Shown piece by piece: positions 1 to 11,034 of a stretch of 64,000 nucleotides of DNA (position 1 is its first letter; each line of letters starts with the position of its first letter). A program made the position numbers and the translations under genes. Source of the DNA: an uncultured Candidatus Saccharibacteria bacterium (GTDB lineage Bacteria > Patescibacteriota > Saccharimonadia > Saccharimonadales > Saccharimonadaceae); NCBI GenBank assembly GCA_963522835.1, contig CAUQZB010000007.1, positions 23,926 through 87,925 of the forward strand, given 5' to 3'. The notes under the pieces were generated by a model. That model made no database searches, was not told the origin of the DNA, and saw only the letters and a program-made list of their open reading frames with translations.

Positions 1-360
1 TTCAAGTAGCTTGCTCGCATCTTGGCTGCCACTCGTCCTAAGCTGATCTTTACGCATTTCTAGCACAAGACTCGTCACTCGTGCAGTATAGAGTATATTC
101 TCACGATAAATTGCTTCTGGGGATACCGTCTTACCCTTATTCTCATCCCTTGTCGTGCCATTATATTCATTCAAAGCAGCAGAAACACCGGCTAATGCCG
201 ATGCAATTCTATCCGCTTGCCGTTCCTCCATAAGCTCAGCATAAGACTTAATACCCGAGCGATTCTCTCCTGGTTGTGGTTTTTGCTCCTGCGCAAAATC
301 GCCCTTGCTGACGGGCTTTTGTTTTGTGTGATCTATTGGAAAGAAACTCTCACCGCTCAT
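1..360 (-). CDS. hypothetical protein, N-terminal part only (gene runs off the left edge of the window)
   Basis: The minus-strand frame is open for 120 codons from the ATG at 360-358 to position 1 (MSGESFFPIDHTKQKPVSKGDFAQEQKPQPGEN...). I checked triplet by triplet and found no stop. Its ATG overlaps the TGA of the upstream TatD gene in an ATGA arrangement. No family recognised. Confidence 0.4.
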   Translation of the reverse strand, partial: MSGESFFPIDHTKQKPVSKGDFAQEQKPQPGENRSGIKSYAELMEERQADRIASALAGVSAALNEYNGTTRDENKGKTVSPEAIYRENILYTARVTSLVLEMRKDQLRTSGSQDASKLLE

Positions 361-1205
361 ATATCAAATAACCTTTGTACATTTGCCGTTGTGGTGGTAG
401 CGATGCGCGCGATAGGCAAACCTTTCTTGGCTGCTTGGTCACGGGCTACCTCCTCCACATAAGCCGGTAGGTTGATTCTACCACGGAAGGGTACCGGAGT
501 CAAGAAGGGAGCGTCGGTCTCAAGCAGTATTGCATCGAGTGGGAGATCGGTATAGAGCTGCTGCTGAACACTGTCTTTTGTAAAGGTGCTGATGCCATTG
601 ACGCCAATAAATAAGCCGCGAGCACGGCCCTGCTCAAGCTGCGCCTGAGTATCGGTAAAGCTGTGCAGAACGCCGCGCACTGGCTGAGCATCGTAGATAG
701 GCCAAAAGTCCTGCCACACTACGCCGCGTGCTTGTTTTTCGTCACGCACGTGGAAGCTAACGGGCAGCTGAAACTCCGCCGCAAGCTGCAGCTGCGCCTG
801 GAGGCACTGCTGCTGCGCTGGGCGAGCGCTATTGTCATAAAAATAATCTAGACCAATCTCCCCCACCCCGACAATGACGGGCCGACCCTGCCGTAGTGGC
901 TTTTCAGCGAGGAGCTCACGAATGGCTGTAATACCCGCTTCGCCCGCTGCTTCGGCATCATGGGGATGAATACCCACCGCCGCATAACAGTGATCGCGCG
1001 CCATGGCAAACTGCACCGCCTGGCGCGAGCTGCGCACATCCGTCCCGACGCAGATCATGGCAATGCCAGCCTGGACAGCCTGCTGGTAGGCTGCCTCGCG
1101 TGCTGCATCGTCGTAGAACTCGCTATCGTGTAGGTGGCAGTGCGAGTCGATGAGACGCGGCATGGGTGGCGTGCTGCCAAGAGTATGTGTCGTATCACTT
1201 GTCAT
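357..1205 (-). CDS. tatD: TatD-family metal-dependent hydrolase/DNase
   Basis: The N-terminal LIDSHCHLHDSEF motif, GEIGLDY and HSF/LLETDAPFL motifs are typical of TatD/YabD. AAAGGAG lies 6 nt upstream of the ATG at 1205. The gene follows metG directly, as in Bacillus and Mycobacterium. Confidence 0.85.
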   Translation of the reverse strand: MTSDTTHTLGSTPPMPRLIDSHCHLHDSEFYDDAAREAAYQQAVQAGIAMICVGTDVRSSRQAVQFAMARDHCYAAVGIHPHDAEAAGEAGITAIRELLAEKPLRQGRPVIVGVGEIGLDYFYDNSARPAQQQCLQAQLQLAAEFQLPVSFHVRDEKQARGVVWQDFWPIYDAQPVRGVLHSFTDTQAQLEQGRARGLFIGVNGISTFTKDSVQQQLYTDLPLDAILLETDAPFLTPVPFRGRINLPAYVEEVARDQAAKKGLPIARIATTTTANVQRLFDI

Positions 1206-1220
1206 AGCTTACTCCTTTGT

Positions 1221-2717
1221 TTATGAGGCTGTGCGAGCTCGTGGGTCGGGGGTATGAATGTAGCGCTTCGGGAACAGTGGTGGGACGTCGGCTGGCACGA
1301 CGCCAGTGCCAAAGATAGTGTGGATGGCCTGAGCAGTAGCAGGCATGAATGGCACAAGCTCATCGGCAATCTGCAGCAACGTACTGGCCGCATAGGCTAA
1401 GACTTCGCTCAGGTGCGACTCGGCATCGTGGTCGGTCGCGCGGCGCTTGGCGATCTCCCATGGCTTGACCCGCTCAAGGTATTGGTTGAGGCTACGGACG
1501 GAGCTCCATACTTCATCGAGTGCTTTATCAAACTCCAGTCGCTGCATCATGTCGCGGTAGATGGTCATATCGTGCTCGGCTTGCGGCGCATCGCCAATCA
1601 CTCCTGCTTGGTAGCGTGTCAGCATAGCTGCCACCCGCTGCACAAGGTTGCCGAGGTCATTACCGAGCTCGCCGTTGTACGCTTTCTCAAATTTCTCCCA
1701 GGTGAAATCTCCATCGTCTTGGGTAGGAATATGACGAGCAAAGAAATAGCGGAAGGCATCAGCCCCATAGCTCTGGATAATTTCCATTGGGTCGACCACA
1801 TTGCCGACTGTTTTGCTCATCTTACTACCTCCAACGTGAACGAAGCCGTGGACGAGTAGTGTCTTAGGTAGTGGGAGATCAAGCCCGAGCAGCATAGCGG
1901 GCCAGATCCCCGCGTGGAAGCGCAAAATATCCTTGCCAATGACTTGCACATCGGCTGGCCAATACGCCTGCCACTCGGCCTTATCTGGATAGCCCAGTAC
2001 CGTAATGTAGTTAGCTAAGGCATCAAGCCAGACGTACATCACTTGGCTGTCGTCGCCTGGCACTGGCACGCCCCAGCTCAGTGTCTTACGCGGACGGCTA
2101 ATTGAGACATCTTGGACGCCATTTTTGATAAGCTCGAGGAACTCATTTTTGCGGAACTCGGGCACGATTTTCATCCGGCCTTCAGTGATGGCTTGGCGAA
2201 TCTGCTCGGTAAAGGCACTCGCTTTGAGGTAGTAGTTCTCCTCTGAGACGCGCTCATACGGCGTTTGGTGATCAGGGCATATGCCATTTGTCTCGTGGAC
2301 TTCCTTGTCGGTAAAGAATGCCTCATGCCCCACGCAATACCAGCCCTCATAGGTGTGCTTGTAGATCAGCCCCGCCTGAGCAAGCCGCTGCCAGATGTAC
2401 TGCACTGCTGCGACGTGGTGTGGGTCAGTCGTGCGGATAAAGTCAGTGTATTCTGCACCAACTGCCTCCATCAAGACTTTGAAGTTGCCATACATGCTGT
2501 CCACATAGCCCTGTGGGTCGAGCCCATTCGCCTGAGCCTTAGCAGCGATTTTATTGCCGTGTTCATCCGTGCCAACCTGGAAGCGTACCTCGTGGCCATT
2601 TTGCTTCTGATAGCGCGCCCAGATATCGGCCAGGAGATAGTCGAGCGCATTGCCAATATGCGGCTTACCGTTGACATAAGGAATAGCAGTGGTGATGTAG
2701 GCGTGTTGTTTGGTCAT
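1221..2717 (-). CDS. metG: methionine--tRNA ligase
   Basis: Class I aaRS motifs are present: PYVNGKPHIGN (HIGH) and KMSKTVGN (KMSKS). Overall MetRS-like sequence. TATAAT at 2729-2724 lies 6 nt from the ATG. Confidence 0.95.
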   Translation of the reverse strand: MTKQHAYITTAIPYVNGKPHIGNALDYLLADIWARYQKQNGHEVRFQVGTDEHGNKIAAKAQANGLDPQGYVDSMYGNFKVLMEAVGAEYTDFIRTTDPHHVAAVQYIWQRLAQAGLIYKHTYEGWYCVGHEAFFTDKEVHETNGICPDHQTPYERVSEENYYLKASAFTEQIRQAITEGRMKIVPEFRKNEFLELIKNGVQDVSISRPRKTLSWGVPVPGDDSQVMYVWLDALANYITVLGYPDKAEWQAYWPADVQVIGKDILRFHAGIWPAMLLGLDLPLPKTLLVHGFVHVGGSKMSKTVGNVVDPMEIIQSYGADAFRYFFARHIPTQDDGDFTWEKFEKAYNGELGNDLGNLVQRVAAMLTRYQAGVIGDAPQAEHDMTIYRDMMQRLEFDKALDEVWSSVRSLNQYLERVKPWEIAKRRATDHDAESHLSEVLAYAASTLLQIADELVPFMPATAQAIHTIFGTGVVPADVPPLFPKRYIHTPDPRARTAS

Positions 2718-2741
2718 AGGGGTATTATAGCATGAGGTGAG

Positions 2742-3803
2742 TTAGGGTGTCTTGGGCTGCTGCCGCTTGGCAATATCAATCAGCACATAGAGCTTATCCG
2801 TGCTCTGCATCAGGGTGATGGTGTCGTCCTGGTCGGTCATCCAGACGGTTGAGATAGCAAGACCTTCTGCGGCATGCTCGGCTTCGTCTACTTCATCGTC
2901 TGGCTCACCCCAGGCTGTTTGCCCAGCCTGCACATATTGGCGGTAGAGGTCGAGGCATTCTGCCGTGGGTGAACCATTAGCAAACCATACGACGACCATC
3001 GATACAGCACCACCTTCGCTCGACACCATAACGCGCAGCGGCCCATCATAATACCACCAGGTATTTTCCTCTTGCTTCATGAGCTGCCAGCCCTGGCTCT
3101 GCATTGTGGTATCAAGCTGCTGCAAAGACAGGGGCCATGACTGACGCTTGATGCGATCGATCCAGGCGGTGAATTGCTCTGGAGAGAAGTATGTCTCCTC
3201 ATGTAGCTCACTCTCCAGGCGCGGTAATGGATCAGGGCCAGGATAGGGACGAATCGTGCGCGGGCGGCGGGCACCATCGGACGGTGCACCAGTTTGCTCA
3301 CTGACAAGGACAAACATGATTGTCTTGTCCTCCTCATTGAGGTTGATACTAACGTACTCCCGCGAAGCTGGTGTTTGTGGAGCAAAACCCTTCCACACCG
3401 TACCAGTGAGATAACCCGTGTGTCGTACATCGGTCGGCCAGCCCCAGGCAGTGATACCTGCCGCACAGTACTCATCGTATAGTGTGCGGCACGCGTCTGC
3501 TGGTAATTGGTGAATTACATCGATGACTGGGCTACTCGCCACCGACGTTACAACGTCATTTTCTATTGTAGCAAGCAATGGCATGTGACCATCATAGTGC
3601 ATACACTGCTCGTGCCCTGTCTGCGGCTCTTGCTCACGTGGCTTGACGAGCTGCCAACCCAGCTCTTGGATGAGACTATCGTACACCTCATACGTCATTG
3701 GCCAGGGGAGTTTGCGAAGTGCATTAATGAGCGAGACAAGACGTGCGCCGTCAATCGGCGTGGGCTTGTCAGATGACTGAGTTGATGATTGGTCTGCCGG
3801 CAT
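2742..3803 (-). CDS. hypothetical protein with an internally duplicated ~150-aa domain (WP..GW..AWG motifs)
   Basis: Intact 353-codon ORF. The two halves share LPWPMTYEVYDSLIQELGWQL / QSWPLSLQQLDTTMQSQGWQL and GITAWGWPTD / GQTAWGEPDD. The same motifs occur in ORF 52187..52651. Confidence 0.6.
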   Translation of the reverse strand: MPADQSSTQSSDKPTPIDGARLVSLINALRKLPWPMTYEVYDSLIQELGWQLVKPREQEPQTGHEQCMHYDGHMPLLATIENDVVTSVASSPVIDVIHQLPADACRTLYDEYCAAGITAWGWPTDVRHTGYLTGTVWKGFAPQTPASREYVSINLNEEDKTIMFVLVSEQTGAPSDGARRPRTIRPYPGPDPLPRLESELHEETYFSPEQFTAWIDRIKRQSWPLSLQQLDTTMQSQGWQLMKQEENTWWYYDGPLRVMVSSEGGAVSMVVVWFANGSPTAECLDLYRQYVQAGQTAWGEPDDEVDEAEHAAEGLAISTVWMTDQDDTITLMQSTDKLYVLIDIAKRQQPKTP

Positions 3804-3902
3804 AGTACCTCGTATTTTTACTTATGGTATATCTCTTTGGAAGATAAGAGTATTCGTATCGTACCACGTTTTGTTATAACGTGCTACCATTCAGTCATAT
3901 TA

Positions 3903-3932
3903 TTGACAAAGCTGCAATCTATCATGTATAAT
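3903..3932 (+). promoter_or_regulatory. sigma70-like promoter (TTGACA-18 nt-TATAAT)
   Basis: TTGACA at 3903-3908 and TATAAT at 3927-3932, 13 nt upstream of the ATG at 3946. Confidence 0.55.
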
Positions 3933-3945
3933 ACATTACTCTATT

Positions 3946-4269
3946 ATGGAACATCGCTCATCATCCTACTTTCCCGAGCACTACTCGCCCACCGACCAGC
4001 GAGAGATCGAGAGCTGGACGCGTGAAAAAGGGCTCTTTACCCCAGCGCCGGCGGGGTATCTGCTCCGCACGACTGTTGCTGAGCAGCTCCATGTGACGCA
4101 CGCGACAATTAATCACGTTATTAAGACCCTTGGCATAACACTCGAGCAATATCGTGCGTGGCGTCAAAATGGCCAGCCATCTCACAAGCGAGGCTACCAC
4201 CTCTCGCCTCGGCAAGCCAAGCAAGTCGCAGCTTACCTGGGGCGATCACTTGGTGCAACGGTTCACTAA
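3946..4269 (+). CDS. small hypothetical protein with a helix-turn-helix-like segment
   Basis: 107-codon ORF behind a consensus promoter. TVAEQLHVTHATINHVIKTLGI resembles an HTH. It is followed by ...KRGYHLSPRQAKQVAAYL, a module that repeats in the next gene. Confidence 0.5.
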   Translation: MEHRSSSYFPEHYSPTDQREIESWTREKGLFTPAPAGYLLRTTVAEQLHVTHATINHVIKTLGITLEQYRAWRQNGQPSHKRGYHLSPRQAKQVAAYLGRSLGATVH

Positions 4270-4311
4270 ACACTTAGGCTCGACACACGCTCCCACTACC
4301 TATGCTATAGT

Positions 4312-5343
4312 ATGGTAATGCATATGGAAAAACCCCAGCAATCAGCACAATTACCCGAGATATTTGACAGTCATACTGCTCAAGTAGAAAAGCTCAACGA
4401 CTTGCACAAACTTCTGCGCTTTTTGCTTGAGAATGATCTCGGCCTTTCTACTCACGACCCGGCGCAGGCCTATATGTCACAACATATTCAAGAGACATCT
4501 GCATCGCAGCAACTCCTTCGCTTTATTGCAACCATCCAACCACATGACACCCAGCCTGCTCGTACCGTTATCACCTATCCAGATGTTGCTTTTGTCTTTG
4601 ATACTCCAGCTGTAGAACAAGCCATGCAGACTCAGGGCAATAGCTATCAACCATTGCACGAGTATAGAAAACACGATCTTGCTGAGCTCGTGCAAGATGA
4701 GACCTGTGGTGTTGCTCTATCGACTGATCATCATTTTGCCTGGTATATGTATGATGCACTCACGAGCCCACTTGCTGATGTGCACCAGCGTATCGCTGCC
4801 GACCAGACTAACAACAACTGGCTCCATGGCATCTATCATCATAGCCCAGAGCCACTTATATCTGTTGGCCAGGCTTCTCGCCACCTTGATATAACACCGT
4901 ATGCGGTCGAGAAAGCGTTGAGGAATCCTCAGGTCATCCAGAAGATCGGCGAGATCGTTGTCGCTCCACGCGGCAATTCGATGCGCCCATTCATCACACC
5001 CAAACAACTTCTGAGCCTCCAAGAGCATCTTCGCCCCCACAACGCTGATACCCATACGCTCCTCCCTCCACAGGAAGAAGAAATGACCTGCCCGCAACTT
5101 GCCAGAGCACTTGGTGTACACGACATGACAGTGCGACGAGCTATTGCCGCCCTTAATCAAGAGAAATCCGAGGGTGAGGATAGTCTGACTGGCACAACGC
5201 GTAAAGAGCAAGGTCGACGCCCAACCGTATATTATTCACCTGAGCAGCAGGTACGCATCCTCGCCAAGCTTCAAGAGAAAGGCTATTCTGTGTTAGCAAA
5301 GCTGCGTGATAAGCTGGGCGAAGACCTCACGCATAAAGATTAA
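4312..5343 (+). CDS. hypothetical protein with two HTH-like modules
   Basis: 343-codon ORF. The two modules are ISVGQASRHLDITPYAVEKAL...RPFITPKQLLSLQEHL and MTCPQLARALGVHDMTVRRAIAAL...RPTVYYSPEQQVRILAKL. TATAGT at 4306-4311 sits immediately before the first ATG, so ATG 4318 or 4324 may be the real start. Confidence 0.55.
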   Translation: MVMHMEKPQQSAQLPEIFDSHTAQVEKLNDLHKLLRFLLENDLGLSTHDPAQAYMSQHIQETSASQQLLRFIATIQPHDTQPARTVITYPDVAFVFDTPAVEQAMQTQGNSYQPLHEYRKHDLAELVQDETCGVALSTDHHFAWYMYDALTSPLADVHQRIAADQTNNNWLHGIYHHSPEPLISVGQASRHLDITPYAVEKALRNPQVIQKIGEIVVAPRGNSMRPFITPKQLLSLQEHLRPHNADTHTLLPPQEEEMTCPQLARALGVHDMTVRRAIAALNQEKSEGEDSLTGTTRKEQGRRPTVYYSPEQQVRILAKLQEKGYSVLAKLRDKLGEDLTHKD

Positions 5344-5521
5344 AAATGCTACAATAATAGCTAGTATGACTGTACGACTCAGCGCGACACAAATGCAACC
5401 CAGAAATATCCCAGAAGAACCAACAGCCCTCTCTCATACACCAACACTGCTGGATTTATATGCAATATTAAAGCAGTTAAGAAATCAGCCGGGGCATCAC
5501 TAACTTATGTGGTATAAGTAA

Positions 5522-5869
5522 CTACTTCCCTGTGATACGCACAAATATCATCTCATGTTCGTCTGGCCCTGGGTTGTGGATCTTGTGCTGCGTATCGGGT
5601 GGAAAGATAAAGACGTCTCCTGGATTGTAGGTATATGTGCCATCTGCGTCAGACACCTCACCACTGCCCTTGAGGACGATCATTGTCTCTTCGACACCAG
5701 GGTGATCATGCCAGTCAAAGGTCGCACCTGCAGGCAACCAACCATGGGTGATTGCCTCGCAATATGGGCTTGTGGCGTGCTCAGCCGACACATAGACTTT
5801 GCGTGCTCCACTGCCGCCATGGGCAGATTCTTTGGGGATGGTGGTTGCTGGACGTTTGATGATGCGCAT
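5522..5869 (-). CDS. cupin domain protein
   Basis: Two cupin motifs are present: WHDHPGVEETMIVLKGSG and GDVFIFPPDTQHKIHNPG. GAAGGAG lies 6 nt upstream of the ATG. Confidence 0.75.
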   Translation of the reverse strand: MRIIKRPATTIPKESAHGGSGARKVYVSAEHATSPYCEAITHGWLPAGATFDWHDHPGVEETMIVLKGSGEVSDADGTYTYNPGDVFIFPPDTQHKIHNPGPDEHEMIFVRITGK

Positions 5870-5889
5870 GGGTTGCTCCTTCTATTTAC

Positions 5890-6582
5890 TTATTGCTGCA
5901 GTTTTTGCTTATAGTAAAAGGCGTTTGCCTCGATCTCTTCCACCGTGTCTGGGAATTGCTGCACAAGCTGGGTGTGGCTCAGCTTCAGCACGGCATCTTG
6001 TGGGCTGAGCTCAGATGCAGCCAGGGCTTGGCGCACATATTCGCGAATGTGCCAATACTGCTGGCCATCCTTAATAAGCTGCTCCCTTGGTGCACTGAGC
6101 GCACCAACCATCATGCCTGTGGCAGTGCGGCTCGCTTTTTTGAATATGGTGATGCCGACGGCGACAACCAGCAGCCACAGCCCAATAAGCAATACGATGG
6201 CGCTTTGCTTGGGGTTGCATATTGCCACCAGCACAAGCGCACCAGTTATACCGACGGCGATTTTGTGTCGCTGCACGAAGCTACTCTTCTCCCCTAGCTG
6301 CTGCGCGGCCTTCACATTGGAATCGAGCTCAGTAGGAAAGGGATATGACATCTCACTCAGCGCGCCACGTGCAATAATGTGCGAAATATCGTCGCGGACA
6401 ATTGGGTCAAAATGCTCTATGCGATAGTCGTCCTGTAGCTTCTTGGTCGATCCATCAATAATATCAACTGCCATAGCAACACCGGTTTGAGCCGCCATAT
6501 CTCCCAGCGTTACACCAGCCCCAATGCCAAACGAATTCTTAAACCATCCCATGATCATACTCCTTCTCTTGTATCCACCCAC
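5890..6582 (-). CDS. hypothetical membrane protein
   Basis: 230-codon ORF with a central pair of hydrophobic helices (IAVGITGALVLVAI..., AIVLLIGLWLLVVAVGITIF). No family recognised. The start may be an internal Met (MIMGWF...). Confidence 0.5.
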   Translation of the reverse strand: MGGYKRRSMIMGWFKNSFGIGAGVTLGDMAAQTGVAMAVDIIDGSTKKLQDDYRIEHFDPIVRDDISHIIARGALSEMSYPFPTELDSNVKAAQQLGEKSSFVQRHKIAVGITGALVLVAICNPKQSAIVLLIGLWLLVVAVGITIFKKASRTATGMMVGALSAPREQLIKDGQQYWHIREYVRQALAASELSPQDAVLKLSHTQLVQQFPDTVEEIEANAFYYKQKLQQ

Positions 6583-6712
6583 GGTCGATTGATAGGCAAC
6601 CCTTTTCTTATCACAGAATAGCTGATGTAATTACATATTGCAAGGTATATGGGAGTAGCCGACGCAATCATACCGCGGAGGAGTTTGACATTCGGCTATC
6701 TGCAGATTGCCG

Positions 6713-7456
6713 TTAATCTTCTCGCATCATTGCTAGCACCGCAAACCGCCCACCAGTGTCACCCGCTGCGTGCGAGAAGTAGTCGGGGTTTATTACTGTA
6801 TCGACAGGCGAGATGTGGATATTGCGCGGCGCAATGCCCGCGCGCTGGCACGCAGCAGCATTAAAACCCGGCAGGTCAAGATGGATACCATCAGCTTCGT
6901 GCGAGCAAAAGGGTTGCCAAGCTGGGTTGGCCGCCTGGTCAAAATACTGCATGACGTAGCTCTGCCGCTGCGCGCTTGGGCTCATCCAGACAATGATATC
7001 CTCTGCCCGAGAGCCTTCGTGGACGAGGTGATCAATTGTCCGAACAAGCAGTGGTGAGAGTGTCGAATGCCGCCCCAGATGCAATAGCACGAGCACCCGT
7101 TGCACCGGATCATACAGCACCGTCGCCACGCAGTCAGCCACCGGCAACAGCAACCCCACTCCAGGCGAGCGCGTCACGAGGCCGTCCGCTACCATCTCCG
7201 CAGTGTGGCGAGTTGTCGCAGCGCTATCGACCTCGCAGAGCTGGTCATAGCTGCGGCCTACGCCATAGACAACCCGCTGATACACCACATCCGTATATGC
7301 GGCCCCGCTCGCCTGACAAAAGGCCTGTCGGTGTGCCACTACCTGCGGGTGATGTATCTCACCTAACGTGCGGTCAAGCATTGTGCCATCACTGCTTGAC
7401 GACACGCTAACGAGGAGTTCTGATGGGAAGCAGGTAGGTTGATCAGCCCGGATCAT
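6713..7456 (-). CDS. pgeF: YfiH/PgeF-family (DUF152, laccase-domain) protein
   Basis: LLLPVADCVATVLYDP...VLLHLGRHS matches the ADC...H.G..G core of the YfiH/PgeF family. I chose the ATG at 7456-7454 because it forms an ATGA overlap with the rsmA stop. The ORF track extends to 7489. Confidence 0.7.
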   Translation of the reverse strand: MIRADQPTCFPSELLVSVSSSSDGTMLDRTLGEIHHPQVVAHRQAFCQASGAAYTDVVYQRVVYGVGRSYDQLCEVDSAATTRHTAEMVADGLVTRSPGVGLLLPVADCVATVLYDPVQRVLVLLHLGRHSTLSPLLVRTIDHLVHEGSRAEDIIVWMSPSAQRQSYVMQYFDQAANPAWQPFCSHEADGIHLDLPGFNAAACQRAGIAPRNIHISPVDTVINPDYFSHAAGDTGGRFAVLAMMRED

Positions 7457-8235
7457 TGCGCGCGCCACTCTTGCATAATAGCGAGCCACTGGGCAATCGA
7501 CACATCCTCCGCCCGCCAGTCTGGCGAGATACCAGCGCGCTGCAACATCACCTCGACCGCTACCTTATCCAGCGCGAAGCCTGCCGCCAGTGCACTGCGC
7601 AGCTTCTTGCGCTTGGCCACAAAACCCGCCCGCACCACGCGGAAGAAGTCCTTCTCGTCCGCTGGCGACACGAGAGGCTGAGCACGCGTCTCGAGCACCA
7701 CCACCTGCGAGTCTACCTTAGGCGGTGGCACAAAGAACTGGCGTGGCACCACTGGGCCAAGCGTCGCCTCGGCATAGAGCTGAGCGCTCACTCCCAGCAG
7801 GCTCATTGCACCAGGCTGTGCGGCAATGCGCTCAGCTACTTCCTTCTGTACCAGCAGCACCGTGCGGCGCGGCTTATTCTCCGCCGTCAGCAGCTTTTGG
7901 ACAATCTTACTCGTAATGTAATATGGCACATTTGCTACCACGACATAGTCAGCAGGAAGCTGACTAAGGTTAAACTGCAGAATATCCTCATGCACCACCG
8001 TTAGTTGCTTGCCAGGGAATTGCCCTGGCAGCTTGCGCGCGAGGTCGGCGTCGTACTCTACCGCGGTTACTCTGCCCGCTCTGGCCAGGAGTCGGCTTGT
8101 CAATGTGCCCAGCCCCGGGCCAATCTCCAATACTGTATCATCAGGGGTCAGCGCTGCCGCATCGGCAATCGCCGCCAGCATATCCGGGTCTTTGAGCCAA
8201 TGCTGCCCTAGAGATTTTTTATTTTGTAATGCCAT
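7453..8235 (-). CDS. rsmA: 16S rRNA (adenine1518/1519-N6)-dimethyltransferase
   Basis: KKSLGQHWLKD N-terminus, SAM motif VLEIGPGLGTLT and NVPYYITS. TGgTATAAT (8251-8243) lies 7 nt upstream of the ATG. Confidence 0.92.
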   Translation of the reverse strand: MALQNKKSLGQHWLKDPDMLAAIADAAALTPDDTVLEIGPGLGTLTSRLLARAGRVTAVEYDADLARKLPGQFPGKQLTVVHEDILQFNLSQLPADYVVVANVPYYITSKIVQKLLTAENKPRRTVLLVQKEVAERIAAQPGAMSLLGVSAQLYAEATLGPVVPRQFFVPPPKVDSQVVVLETRAQPLVSPADEKDFFRVVRAGFVAKRKKLRSALAAGFALDKVAVEVMLQRAGISPDWRAEDVSIAQWLAIMQEWRAQ

Positions 8236-8312
8236 AGTATGTATTATACCAGGGTTAGCAATAGTATGCTCTGCATAACTGACTGACGCCTTCTATAGCC
8301 ATAACTTTTTTG

Positions 8313-8576
8313 TCATAATTCTTATATTCTATCTTCTCCTTCTTTATCTATTTATATCTTTATAACTTTCTTTATCTAATATCTATCTATTTCTATACCT
8401 ATCTCTATATATCTCTATAATTCTCTTTCTCTATATTTCTATATCTATATTCTTATCTCTATTTCTATTTATTTATCTTTCTATATATCTACACTATTCT
8501 CTATATCTCTCTATACATCCATATATCCATATCGATTTCTCTCCTATTATATATAAATATATAAAAGAATAGAAAA
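8313..8576. repeat. G-depleted low-complexity tract (T/C/A only on the + strand, one G at 8534)
   Basis: By direct reading, no G occurs in 8313-8533 (221 nt) or in 8535-8576 (42 nt). The tract is built from degenerate CTAT/ATCT/TTCT/TATA words with no fixed period. No ORF on either strand. Confidence 0.85.
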
Positions 8577-8610
8577 AGAGTCTGCTGTAACAGGGAAAAA
8601 ACAGGGTAAC

Positions 8611-8636
8611 TATAGTACAAATCGATTTGTACTATA
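8611..8636. promoter_or_regulatory. 26-bp perfect palindrome TATAGTACAAATCGATTTGTACTATA (candidate operator or divergent -10 boxes)
   Basis: The sequence equals its own reverse complement over 26 bp. Each arm begins with TATAGT. On the minus strand TTTCAT lies 17 nt upstream (8659-8654). Confidence 0.4.
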
Positions 8637-8757
8637 TGTTGGGAGGGGAAAACATGAAAAAATGGTGGCTAAAGTAGGAAAATATTATGCAAACCAATGT
8701 ACTGTGACACCAAGGCAAAAACTTCCGTCAGCGAAGCAGCAAACGATTTAGTGGACG

Positions 8758-9804
8758 CTACTTACCGTCCACCTTCGTCCAATCCGTCGCGAGGTCAAAG
8801 CCATGTGGGTGTTTAGTGGCAAAGCTACCAGTATCGTACACTTTGCCTGGACCCATGCTTGTTTCAACCACTGAGCAGCGTGGGTAGTTGCTATAATTCG
8901 CCGCCACGAGGATGTAGCCGTCTTTATCGACCTTAGCCCCATCACCGCGAATGGTGTAAGTGCCGCCACCACAGTTACGCATGGCGACGTTCATCGGCAA
9001 ATCGTAGTATGTCTCGCGGTGGCTCACCCCTTTGCTGTCAGTAAAGTGATGTGCACCCTTGCTCTTCGTCAATGGATTCTTAGGCTTTGTCCCGACTATT
9101 TCTACTTGCGCAGTTGGCTGCTTTACCACTGTTTGCGCCGTCAAGCGACGTTGCACCTCAGTACCATCCTTCATCTCAACCGTATAAGTTAAGCGACTAA
9201 CACCTGGCTGGCCAGCCTGCTTGATTGTTTTGCTACCGATGAATTGCTGCTTGTCTTTGATCGTCTCAGTCGCAAATGCAATCGGCTCCTCCACTGTCAC
9301 TGTATGTGTTGGTGCGCGGTGAATAGTCATCATCTCACTTGGCCCATCCAGTGCAATATTACCAGGTGTTTGGAAGGTCGTAGTATCCTCGCGGTAGAGC
9401 GCCATGCCGGCCGCCTTGGCAATATCCTGCGGCGTTTGCGCTGCGGTGAGCACACGAGAACGCTTCTTACCATCTATTACAGTGACTAACCGAGCACGCT
9501 GGATTATCACTGTTGGTGCTGCCTGCGCAAGCGACGCATCAAGGTGAGGTGAGACGGAGTCGTGCGAGGCATCAATCTTCATACCCGAGGTAGCGATGAG
9601 CTCCCGCACAGACGAAGCAGTCGAGTAGACGGCACGCTCTCGACCATTATCCACTACAGTAACCAGTCGAGCTGGCACTGCTGCTGGGCTCTGAGCCGAA
9701 GCATAGCTTGCCACGATAAGACCGCTTATGACACTCAGCCCCAGCAAGCAGGCAATCATCGGTTGACGATGCTGCCACAGACGATAGAGGCTCTTCGTAA
9801 TCAT
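8758..9804 (-). CDS. DUF348/G5-domain cell-wall protein with a C-terminal 3D (YabE-like, RlpA/MltA-type barrel) domain
   Basis: N-terminal TM, repeated DUF348-like segments, G5-like TYTVEMKDGTEVQRRLTAQTVVKQPTAQVEIVGTK, and a C-terminal ...ETYYDLPMN...GYILVAANYSNYPRCSVVETSMGPGKVYDTG typical of the 3D domain. Adjacent to ksgA/rsmA, as yabE is in Bacillus. Confidence 0.8.
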   Translation of the reverse strand: MITKSLYRLWQHRQPMIACLLGLSVISGLIVASYASAQSPAAVPARLVTVVDNGRERAVYSTASSVRELIATSGMKIDASHDSVSPHLDASLAQAAPTVIIQRARLVTVIDGKKRSRVLTAAQTPQDIAKAAGMALYREDTTTFQTPGNIALDGPSEMMTIHRAPTHTVTVEEPIAFATETIKDKQQFIGSKTIKQAGQPGVSRLTYTVEMKDGTEVQRRLTAQTVVKQPTAQVEIVGTKPKNPLTKSKGAHHFTDSKGVSHRETYYDLPMNVAMRNCGGGTYTIRGDGAKVDKDGYILVAANYSNYPRCSVVETSMGPGKVYDTGSFATKHPHGFDLATDWTKVDGK

Positions 9805-9825
9805 CTCGTTCTCTTAGCTAGGCTG

Positions 9826-11034
9826 CTAGCGGTAGATGTCTTGCAGCCCCATCTTATTCTTACATGTTGGCCAGGGTTGCCAGCCACGACGCTGGTACGT
9901 TTCCCAGGCTTTTTGGTCTTGGACCTCTGGTGGTGCTTCCGCTGCATTGGCATAGCCACCAAAACCACCCCAGGTCTTGATGTCAAATTGATACGCACCG
10001 TAATAACCATTGCCAGTGTTGGAGGTGTAACCCCCTTCGCAGCTACGTAGCTTCGCTAGTGCCCCCGCAAAGTCACCACTAAAGGTAGTATCGACCGACT
10101 TCTTCTTCGTCCCAACGATCTCGACCCGGTTGACTGGCTCTTGCGTTACCACACTACTGAGCTGCTTGCGCGACTCTTCGCGGCCATTCTTCATAATAAT
10201 CTCGTATGTCACGGCCTTCTTGCCTTTTTTGCCCTCAGTCTTGACTTCTTTTTTGCCACGCTCGCGGTCGGCATCCTTAATCTCCTCCGTCTTGAAGTCA
10301 ACTTCTTCCTCTACTGTGACCGTCTGCTTGCCATTACGCCAGAGCTCTACCGTCATACCAGCCGTTAGTGGTGCGCTAGCTGGCACCGATAGCGTATCAT
10401 CAGCGCCTAGAGTGATTTTCTTGGCCTTGAGCATTGCACCGACCGTCTTCTCCATCGTGTATGCCTGGATGGTTTTGCCATAAAATACAAGGGTAAAGGG
10501 CGTTGCGCGGCGGATCGTCATCACCTCTGCCGCCCCATCAGCAATGATATCGCGCGAGCGAGCCAGCACCGCTTGGTCTTCATCGTGCAGTGGAATACCC
10601 GCCTGCTCTGCAATCTGCTTGCCTGTGCGATAAGCGGTAATAAGCTTCGTATCTGCCCCGCCATCGCGGATCACCACTGGCCGCGCTCGATAGATGTTTA
10701 CTTCGTACGAGGCGCTCTCTAGCGGTGTATCAAGCTCGGGCTCGGTGCGGTCTTTGTCATCAAGTCGCACATTTGCCTCACGCAACGCATCACGTAAGGT
10801 AGTCGCCTTGGTGTAGAACCCGCGCTTAACCGTGCCTTCGTGCAATGTGATGATATGCTCGCCACTACCTGGCTGGCGCGACGCTGCATGGACGGACGGA
10901 ATCCGCCATAAGCCAATACCAACCAGTGCAACCATACCAGCGATAGCAAGATTGCGTGGCGAGAAAAATTTCAAAAATGGAATAGACTGTATCATAATCT
11001 GCGTAGCAATATACGCTACGATGTAGTATAGCAA
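9826..11034 (-). CDS. RpfB-like resuscitation-promoting-factor protein (DUF348 repeats, G5, Rpf transglycosylase-like domain)
   Basis: N-terminal TM, three DUF348-like repeats, G5 (KAVTYEIIMKNGREESRKQLSSVVTQEPVNRVEIVGTK), and a C-terminal CEGGYTSNTGNGYYGAYQFDIKTW...QDQKAWETYQRRGWQPWPTC that matches the Rpf catalytic domain. Confidence 0.85.
   Translation of the reverse strand: MLYYIVAYIATQIMIQSIPFLKFFSPRNLAIAGMVALVGIGLWRIPSVHAASRQPGSGEHIITLHEGTVKRGFYTKATTLRDALREANVRLDDKDRTEPELDTPLESASYEVNIYRARPVVIRDGGADTKLITAYRTGKQIAEQAGIPLHDEDQAVLARSRDIIADGAAEVMTIRRATPFTLVFYGKTIQAYTMEKTVGAMLKAKKITLGADDTLSVPASAPLTAGMTVELWRNGKQTVTVEEEVDFKTEEIKDADRERGKKEVKTEGKKGKKAVTYEIIMKNGREESRKQLSSVVTQEPVNRVEIVGTKKKSVDTTFSGDFAGALAKLRSCEGGYTSNTGNGYYGAYQFDIKTWGGFGGYANAAEAPPEVQDQKAWETYQRRGWQPWPTCKNKMGLQDIYR

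Follow-up and report, generated by a model that had tools for sequence, protein, structure and literature searches.

What accounts for a stretch of bacterial DNA that goes without one of the four bases, on one strand, for more than two hundred nucleotides, and does such a stretch do anything for the genes that lie beside it? The question is raised by a window of 64,000 nucleotides (the whole stretch of DNA that was analysed) from an uncultured Candidatus Saccharibacteria bacterium, in which the intergenic gap next to rsmA holds a run of 221 positions with no G on the + strand. An earlier note on this DNA proposed that the tract could be a long unstructured RNA, or a curved, UP-like or protein-binding piece of DNA. 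We find that the tract is most likely a by-product of mutation and not a dedicated RNA or promoter device. From the comparison of alleles, it is probably a hypervariable array of simple sequence, generated by slippage and carried in an accessory cassette that is decaying, with no need of a sequence-specific function.

Anatomy of the locus

The gap covers 522 bp (8236-8757) between rsmA and a G5/DUF348 gene, just as the earlier note had it. The features used below, in order along the window, are:

7453-8235, - strand: rsmA (16S rRNA dimethyladenosine transferase; Pfam RrnaAD, E 7e-59)
8243-8251, - strand: extended -10 of rsmA (TGGTATAAT), 7 nt before the ATG, conserved with or without the tract
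8313-8566, no strand given: run that is G-free on + and C-free on -, made of 221 nt, one G at 8534 and 32 nt
8317-8544, - strand: hypervariable (A-D)n array, 228 nt, bounded by conserved GGAGAGAAAT (5') and ATGAC (3')
8317-8375, - strand: stretch of the array nearest to rsmA (...GTTATAAAGATATRAATAGATAAAGAAGGAGAAGATAGARTATAAGAATT), which every tract allele conserves
8545-8580, - strand: conserved flank on the array's far side from rsmA, with one AT-rich and one pyrimidine-rich block (CTCTTTTTCTATTCTTTTATATATTTATATATAATA)
8587-8616, + strand: promoter-like site (GTAACA-18-TATAGT) that points away from rsmA and precedes gene X in fuller alleles
8611-8636, no strand given: perfect 26-bp palindrome (TATAGTACAAATC/GATTTGTACTATA), 32 bp in relatives, a candidate operator
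8637-8709, + strand: remnant of the gene X 5' untranslated region, from alignment with L129
8708-8757, + strand: remnant of the gene X 3' coding end (GKNFR.RS.KRF...), from alignment with L129
8758-9804, - strand: G5/DUF348 (YabE-like) gene, whose stop touches the rsmA start in distant relatives

Reading the sequence and counting its bases, we find no G on the + strand over 8313-8533, which is 221 nt, and a single G at 8534, in agreement with the earlier note. The G-free positions after that G number 32 (8535-8566) and not 42 as claimed, and the interval 8313-8576, described as a tract of about 264 nt with a single G, contains three (T 133, A 76, C 52). That the tract is AT-rich and extremely strand-asymmetric is borne out by the base counts. 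How unusual is such a run? Counting across the whole 64-kb window puts the second-longest run lacking any one base at 45 nt, and a symmetric model with G = C = 10.5%, taken from the local GC content of 21%, gives a 221-nt G-free run a probability of ~2e-11 per start.

The tract has stops in all frames, as had been stated, and holds no ORF of at least 40 aa. A coding tract was considered and rejected: the rsmA strand is stopped in all frames, the G-free strand can hold no ATG, GTG or TTG as a start, and indel lengths are not divisible by 3. Over the whole window the + strand has more C than G (17336 and 15628) and more T than A (15926 and 15110), with most genes on the - strand; the skew of the tract has the same direction as this genome-wide skew but is extreme.

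The array has a period of two

The earlier note saw in the tract degenerate words 'without a fixed period'. This part of the description fails: sequence identity is ~0.50 at even lags and ~0.25 at odd lags, where 0.386 is expected, and Fourier power at period 2 reaches 16.7 with all other periods at ~1. We write the array as (A-D)n on the rsmA strand, with D standing for G, T or A, and as (H-T)n on the + strand. In the window, A occupies 86% of alternate positions of the rsmA strand over 228 nt, with two phase shifts. The same holds in all 16 alleles examined, which have an A-phase of 82-88% with 2-4 phase switches; shuffled sequences average 0.66 and reach 0.75 at most. Positions outside the A phase are T (43%), G (37%) or A (20%) on the rsmA strand, and essentially never C. 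AGATA, ATAGA and AGAGA recur most often as words, at spacings that are even in the overwhelming majority of cases. Beyond this, Tandem Repeats Finder returns only degenerate periods of 6, 8, 10 and 26 nt at 63-80% match. The array thus has the short head-to-tail unit of simple-sequence and VNTR loci, in a degenerate and imperfect form.

The junction between the G5 gene and rsmA differs from strain to strain

By its RsmA protein the window falls in a human-oral Saccharibacteria (TM7) clade. In relatives at 62-76% RsmA identity there is no gap at all, the stop of the G5 gene directly touching the rsmA start, and the whole 522-bp gap is therefore lineage-specific. Closer to the window, we compared alleles from about 20 independent assemblies of strains with at least 94% RsmA identity. 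Tract alleles are found in about 20 assemblies, with array lengths of 117-340 nt. L095 has a tractless gap of 128 nt that reads ...TAGGAGAGAAA joined to ATGACAAAAA... (also given as AGGAGAGAAA joined to ATGACAAAAA), and what meets here are precisely the sequences found on either side of the array in other strains. L085-L089, L092 and L094 are also tractless; they have a PIN-like gene in reverse orientation, of 36% GC. We read the G5-gene/rsmA junction, from these alleles, as a hotspot of insertion or rearrangement.

The PIN-like cargo lies at about 1038-1754 of its alleles, the L094 copy being a 134-aa fragment. A Replic_Relax gene adjoins the array in L132 and L134 only; in L134 it occupies, together with more than 9 kb that have no counterpart in the window, positions 1-9700, joined to the array. 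A 21-nt probe gave 32 metagenome matches, of which 19 are unrelated, and the six unrelated matches that were read are chance matches in low-complexity sequence, mostly apparently coding.

Syntenic upstream regions of rsmA, in which the earlier note had proposed to look for similar tracts in related genomes, thus carry them in about 20 assemblies and lack them in L095, in the PIN-type alleles and in the relatives at 62-76% identity. The note had itself counted absence or lack of conservation in close relatives against a function, and by this standard the functional reading is weakened.

The gap as the remains of a gene cassette

What, then, fills the rest of the gap? In the fullest alleles (L129, L124, L111 and L131) the palindrome/TATAGT segment is followed by a gene of 552-563 aa, here called gene X, which is oriented away from rsmA and toward the G5 gene. 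Some strains have it intact and others have lost it by deletion. Alignment of the window with L129 reveals a 1570-bp deletion that removes almost all of gene X, plus an 88-bp deletion; of the region corresponding to L129 4345-6018, all that the window (8637-8757) still has is the 5' UTR of gene X and, close to the 3' end of the gene, some 16 codons. With these two deletions the gap of the window resolves into a promoter/UTR remnant, a 50-nt gene fragment, the array and the rsmA promoter. We interpret the 'oversized gap' of the earlier note, on this alignment, as the decayed remains of a gene cassette that varies between strains, at a hotspot of insertion. A clade-specific cassette, comprising gene X, its palindrome-bearing promoter and the array, would have split the ancestral abutting pair of G5 gene and rsmA, and gene X would later have been deleted from the lineage of the window, leaving the 522-bp gap.

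The palindrome carries a TATAGT box on each strand, is present in other tract alleles (the L090 copy is at 1490-1521), and lies ~95 nt upstream of gene X in the fuller alleles. From this position and its two boxes, it looks like an operator overlapping the gene X promoter. Considered as a repeated or mobile motif, it has no second copy in the window and is absent from viral contigs. In the fuller alleles the tract accordingly sits between two divergent promoters, the extended -10 of rsmA on one side and the gene X promoter, in the palindrome, on the other.

Gene X is an orphan, with homologues found only at 85% identity or above. It matches no Pfam or NCBIfam family, and its best PDB sequence match is non-significant (one hit, E 0.74). 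The AlphaFold model is poor (pLDDT 39.8), and a fold search with it returns non-significant matches only, many of them winged-helix; an OmpR-like winged helix was considered for gene X and is unsupported, the fold matches all being non-significant. The N-terminal half of the protein is largely disordered and its tail is very basic and RGG-like (GKNFRRRSGKRFGGRGQGKKK).

The rsmA core promoter occurs with and without the tract

The earlier note placed the end of the tract about 30 bp from the rsmA promoter. The run in fact ends 61 nt upstream of TGGTATAAT, because this element sits at 8243-8251. The core promoter CCCTGGTATAAT, with the ATG 6-7 nt later, is found in all junction states, whether tractless, PIN-type or tract-bearing. 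Tractless sister strains share the same extended -10, so that rsmA evidently has no need of the tract.

The rsmA start (8233-8251) has no Shine-Dalgarno sequence, and the distance from TGGTATAAT to the ATG is 7 nt here and 6 nt in relatives. A -10 element so near the ATG, together with the lack of a Shine-Dalgarno, suggests that the rsmA mRNA is leaderless or near-leaderless, and rsmA is here probably transcribed from its own near-leaderless promoter. In more distant relatives rsmA is instead coupled to the G5 gene upstream of it, directly at the stop codon. For the RsmA homologues P0001-P0004, P0008 and P0009 (293-296 aa), gene callers add 33-36 residues ahead of the conserved start MALQNKK, and P0003 and P0004, the two that were checked, are of PIN type and have added residues that reach into the variable region ahead of rsmA. 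Such additions are probably artefacts of annotation.

Slippage and the near absence of C

We now consider how an array of this kind could arise. Its interior differs in nearly every allele, and both of its ends are well conserved. Even near-identical strains differ: L001 has one extra tandem 10-nt unit relative to the window and L002. Indels in the array take one of two forms, a tandem duplication or the loss of sequence between direct repeats (L131, for instance, has lost 28 nt between two copies of TAGATAAAG). Short-read contigs often end within the tract, and array length differs between strains through unit-sized indels or slippage, as at VNTR loci, with a range of 117-340 nt among the 16 alleles. 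We take the repeat-flanked indels, the unit gains and the contig breaks to be the marks of replication slippage. Slippage between the array's own short direct repeats would have built it and would keep reshuffling it.

The same process would explain the missing base. If the array was amplified from units that have no C on the rsmA strand, the opposite strand would be without G from the outset, and if array turnover outpaces point mutation, C would rarely accumulate and selection against it would be unnecessary. The G, T and A at the alternate positions could represent a decayed GA/TA-type microsatellite under GC-to-AT-biased mutation, a bias that is usual in bacteria.

The counts are consistent with this expectation. 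Across the 16 alleles, C makes up 25 of 4016 nt on the rsmA strand of the array, and sporadic T-to-C changes do occur, as in GATACATAG and ATAGCTATA. Where the 3' portion of the array aligns well, with the alignment read by eye and counts that are small, there are ~4 A/G polymorphisms to 1 T/C, a ratio that matches, at such small counts, the expectation from 17 T and 60 purines; the neighbouring flank has 6 A/G and 5 C/T, again a small sample. Selection against C was considered and is not needed, as C appears, within these small counts, at about the neutral rate.

Some observations run against a purely neutral array. Every allele with the palindrome segment retains an array of at least 117 nt, even after loss of gene X. 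The genome of this episymbiont, which we take to be roughly 1 Mb, is small and gene-dense, and conservation is good at both ends of the array. Prokaryotes generally avoid dinucleotide-type repeats, with an enrichment in those that depend on a host (PMC4060949), so that a useless one of 117-340 nt is unexpected. We infer that the array has no sequence-specific function and acts at most as an easily melted, AT-rich spacer between divergent promoters.

Alternative explanations

The alternative that survives best, though we still judge it unlikely, is that the array tunes expression: its length and melting would alter the upstream region shared by the gene X and rsmA promoters, strains or subpopulations would differ heritably yet reversibly in expression, and a nucleoid protein or the gene X product may bind. 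The array lies between the promoter-like site with its palindromic candidate operator (8587-8636) and the rsmA -10, all cassette alleles retain it with conserved promoter-proximal ends, and its length differs by unit-sized steps between near-identical strains. It is also the least stable duplex in the 64 kb, at -1.0 kcal/mol per step as compared to a mean of -1.43. The winged-helix-like fold matches of gene X, weak and non-significant as they are, point the same way. There are precedents in the (GAA)n repeat upstream of vlhA (PMC6258824) and in the link of long simple repeats with host dependence (PMC4060949).

Against tuning, the extended -10 of rsmA works in tractless alleles, the array units are degenerate where known switches have perfect repeats, and gene X has a low-confidence structure model and no family match. 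A switch that acts through spacing has further difficulties. The array is not part of the -35/-10 spacer and sits farther out than -60 with respect to rsmA, and helical phasing is not kept between alleles: the palindrome-to-(-10) distance modulo 10.5 is scattered over all values. A 10-11-bp phasing is present in no allele, its power not exceeding that of shuffles, and AA/AAA periodicity peaks at 4-9.25 bp in most alleles, inconsistently among them. Without a 10-11-bp periodicity, curvature from phased A-tracts is unsupported, and with the tract beyond -60 the earlier suggestion of curved DNA or an UP-like element finds no support.

In its strong form, in which the array would be a true contingency element that retunes the gene X and rsmA promoters by slippage, or else a protein-binding platform, this proposal is quite unlikely. 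In the platform version the array may be bound by the gene X product, which is possibly DNA-binding, or by a nucleoid protein.

That the tract is a relic or a working part of a mobile element, such as an AT-rich unwinding or iteron-like origin or a preferred site of integration or recombination, is very unlikely. The alternative cargo at the junction (the 36% GC PIN-like gene, and gene X) would fit, as would the Replic_Relax gene and more than 9 kb of DNA absent from the window, joined to the array in L132 and L134, and an origin would be expected to melt easily, as does this least stable duplex of the window. However, the tract has no conserved long repeat unit and none of the conserved 17-22-bp iterons of such origins, no replication or integrase gene lies beside it in the window, the palindrome has no match in viral contigs, and the array persists where the mobile genes are gone. 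A DnaA-trio was dropped, together with triplet repeats of the TRAP/HutP type, the period being 2 and not 3; H-DNA and Z-DNA were likewise dropped, the strand being neither pure purine nor alternating purine-pyrimidine.

The proposal that the tract is transcribed into a C-free RNA, which as an unstructured A/G/U molecule would serve as a platform or sponge for an RNA-binding protein, has only a slight chance of being correct. The distal face of Gram-positive Hfq reads (A-N)n repeats, and the period-2 pattern of A in the tract would suit an (A-N)n reader of this kind. The tract body is indeed unpaired in the predicted fold, essentially unstructured, and this half of the earlier claim stands. Read-through is possible in alleles that have lost gene X, the window among them: no terminator-like site was found between the G5 stop and the tract, or anywhere in 7900-9100, and the AU-rich hairpin of the palindrome has a T6 run only after 10 nt, unlike an intrinsic terminator, in which a GC-rich hairpin is followed at once by a U-run. 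The other half, a dedicated RNA, is not supported. In fuller alleles a convergent gene X of 1.7 kb separates the G5 gene from the tract, which there is promoter-upstream DNA; placed between divergent promoters, it is a shared, untranscribed upstream spacer and not part of a planned transcript. Its sequence is unconserved, a search of 7000-10500 on both strands against Rfam 15 gave no match at E <=1, and the fold of the tract RNA and of the whole gap is no more stable than those of shuffles (z = -1.7). A CsrB-like sponge is a discrete transcript that displays many GGA motifs in the loops of hairpins, and the tract has no repeated hairpins and few GGA motifs.

Finally, there is next to no chance that assembly or sequencing produced the tract, for although short-read contigs often break at low-complexity DNA and several end inside it, identical tracts come from different samples (L090 and L091; the window and L002) and some 20 allelic versions with conserved flanks were recovered independently in ENA, JGI and Logan assemblies.

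Relation to known repeats

The reading we favour, a slippage-generated array in a decaying cassette, can be placed beside several known systems. In Mycoplasma gallisepticum, (GAA)n lies ~40 nt upstream of the vlhA start sites (PMC6258824). The array resembles promoter contingency repeats of this kind in being a purine- or AT-rich repeat upstream of or between promoters, with strain-dependent length that changes by unit-sized slippage, in a small-genome, host-associated organism. In the same class, Haemophilus influenzae has (TA)n in its divergent hifA/hifB promoters, and Vibrio cholerae has TTTTGAT heptads ahead of ctxAB. Contingency repeats have short, perfect units at spacing-critical positions and a demonstrated effect on expression, whereas the array has 117-340 nt of degenerate period 2 with no constant longer unit, lies beyond -60 with unconserved phasing, and is absent from sister strains that have the same promoter.

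Like bacterial VNTRs and minisatellites, the array is intergenic and non-coding, with hypervariable copy number and indels flanked by direct repeats. Typical VNTR units are longer and better conserved, and an almost complete lack of one base on one strand, here over 200-317 nt, is not among the features described for such loci. The heterogeneous units, drawn from a few words (AGATA, ATAGA, AGAGA), recall the 'cryptically simple' compound imperfect microsatellites, which have been described mainly in eukaryotes. With the synthetic G-less cassette, an engineered tool for in-vitro transcription, the tract shares a long G-less strand, and the resemblance is compositional only. UP elements and curved upstream DNA are also AT-rich and upstream of a promoter, but the former sit at -40 to -60 and the latter needs A-tracts phased at 10-11 bp, and the tract has neither. 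The earlier note knew of no described element of this kind, and our literature searches likewise found no published description.

With dinucleotide-type repeats usually purged from bacteria, the array is a clear example of what we read as slippage-driven turnover in Saccharibacteria. In practical terms, it can serve directly as a marker for typing strains of this oral species and accounts for the breaks of assemblies here, and the annotation of the gap is corrected to that of a decayed, strain-variable cassette at an insertion hotspot. Were the array a true contingency element after all, it would have no described predecessor in the Candidate Phyla Radiation, as far as our literature searches show: slippage would heritably retune the orphan gene X and the ribosome-maturation gene rsmA, giving an obligate episymbiont cheap diversity of expression among strains and within populations. 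An effect of array length on expression would open a first way into phase-variation-like behaviour in this radiation.

The 5' edge of the array

Two details at the array's 5' edge complete the description of the locus. The conserved flank at 8545-8580 is able to pair with segments of the array (32 nt, 81%). On the - strand, within 8501-8545, a conserved, Shine-Dalgarno-like AGGAGAG is followed 8 nt on by an ATG, the start of a mini-ORF that has 3-19 codons, with a different length and sequence in each allele; in L095, which lacks the tract, AGGAGAG directly precedes ATGACAAAAA.
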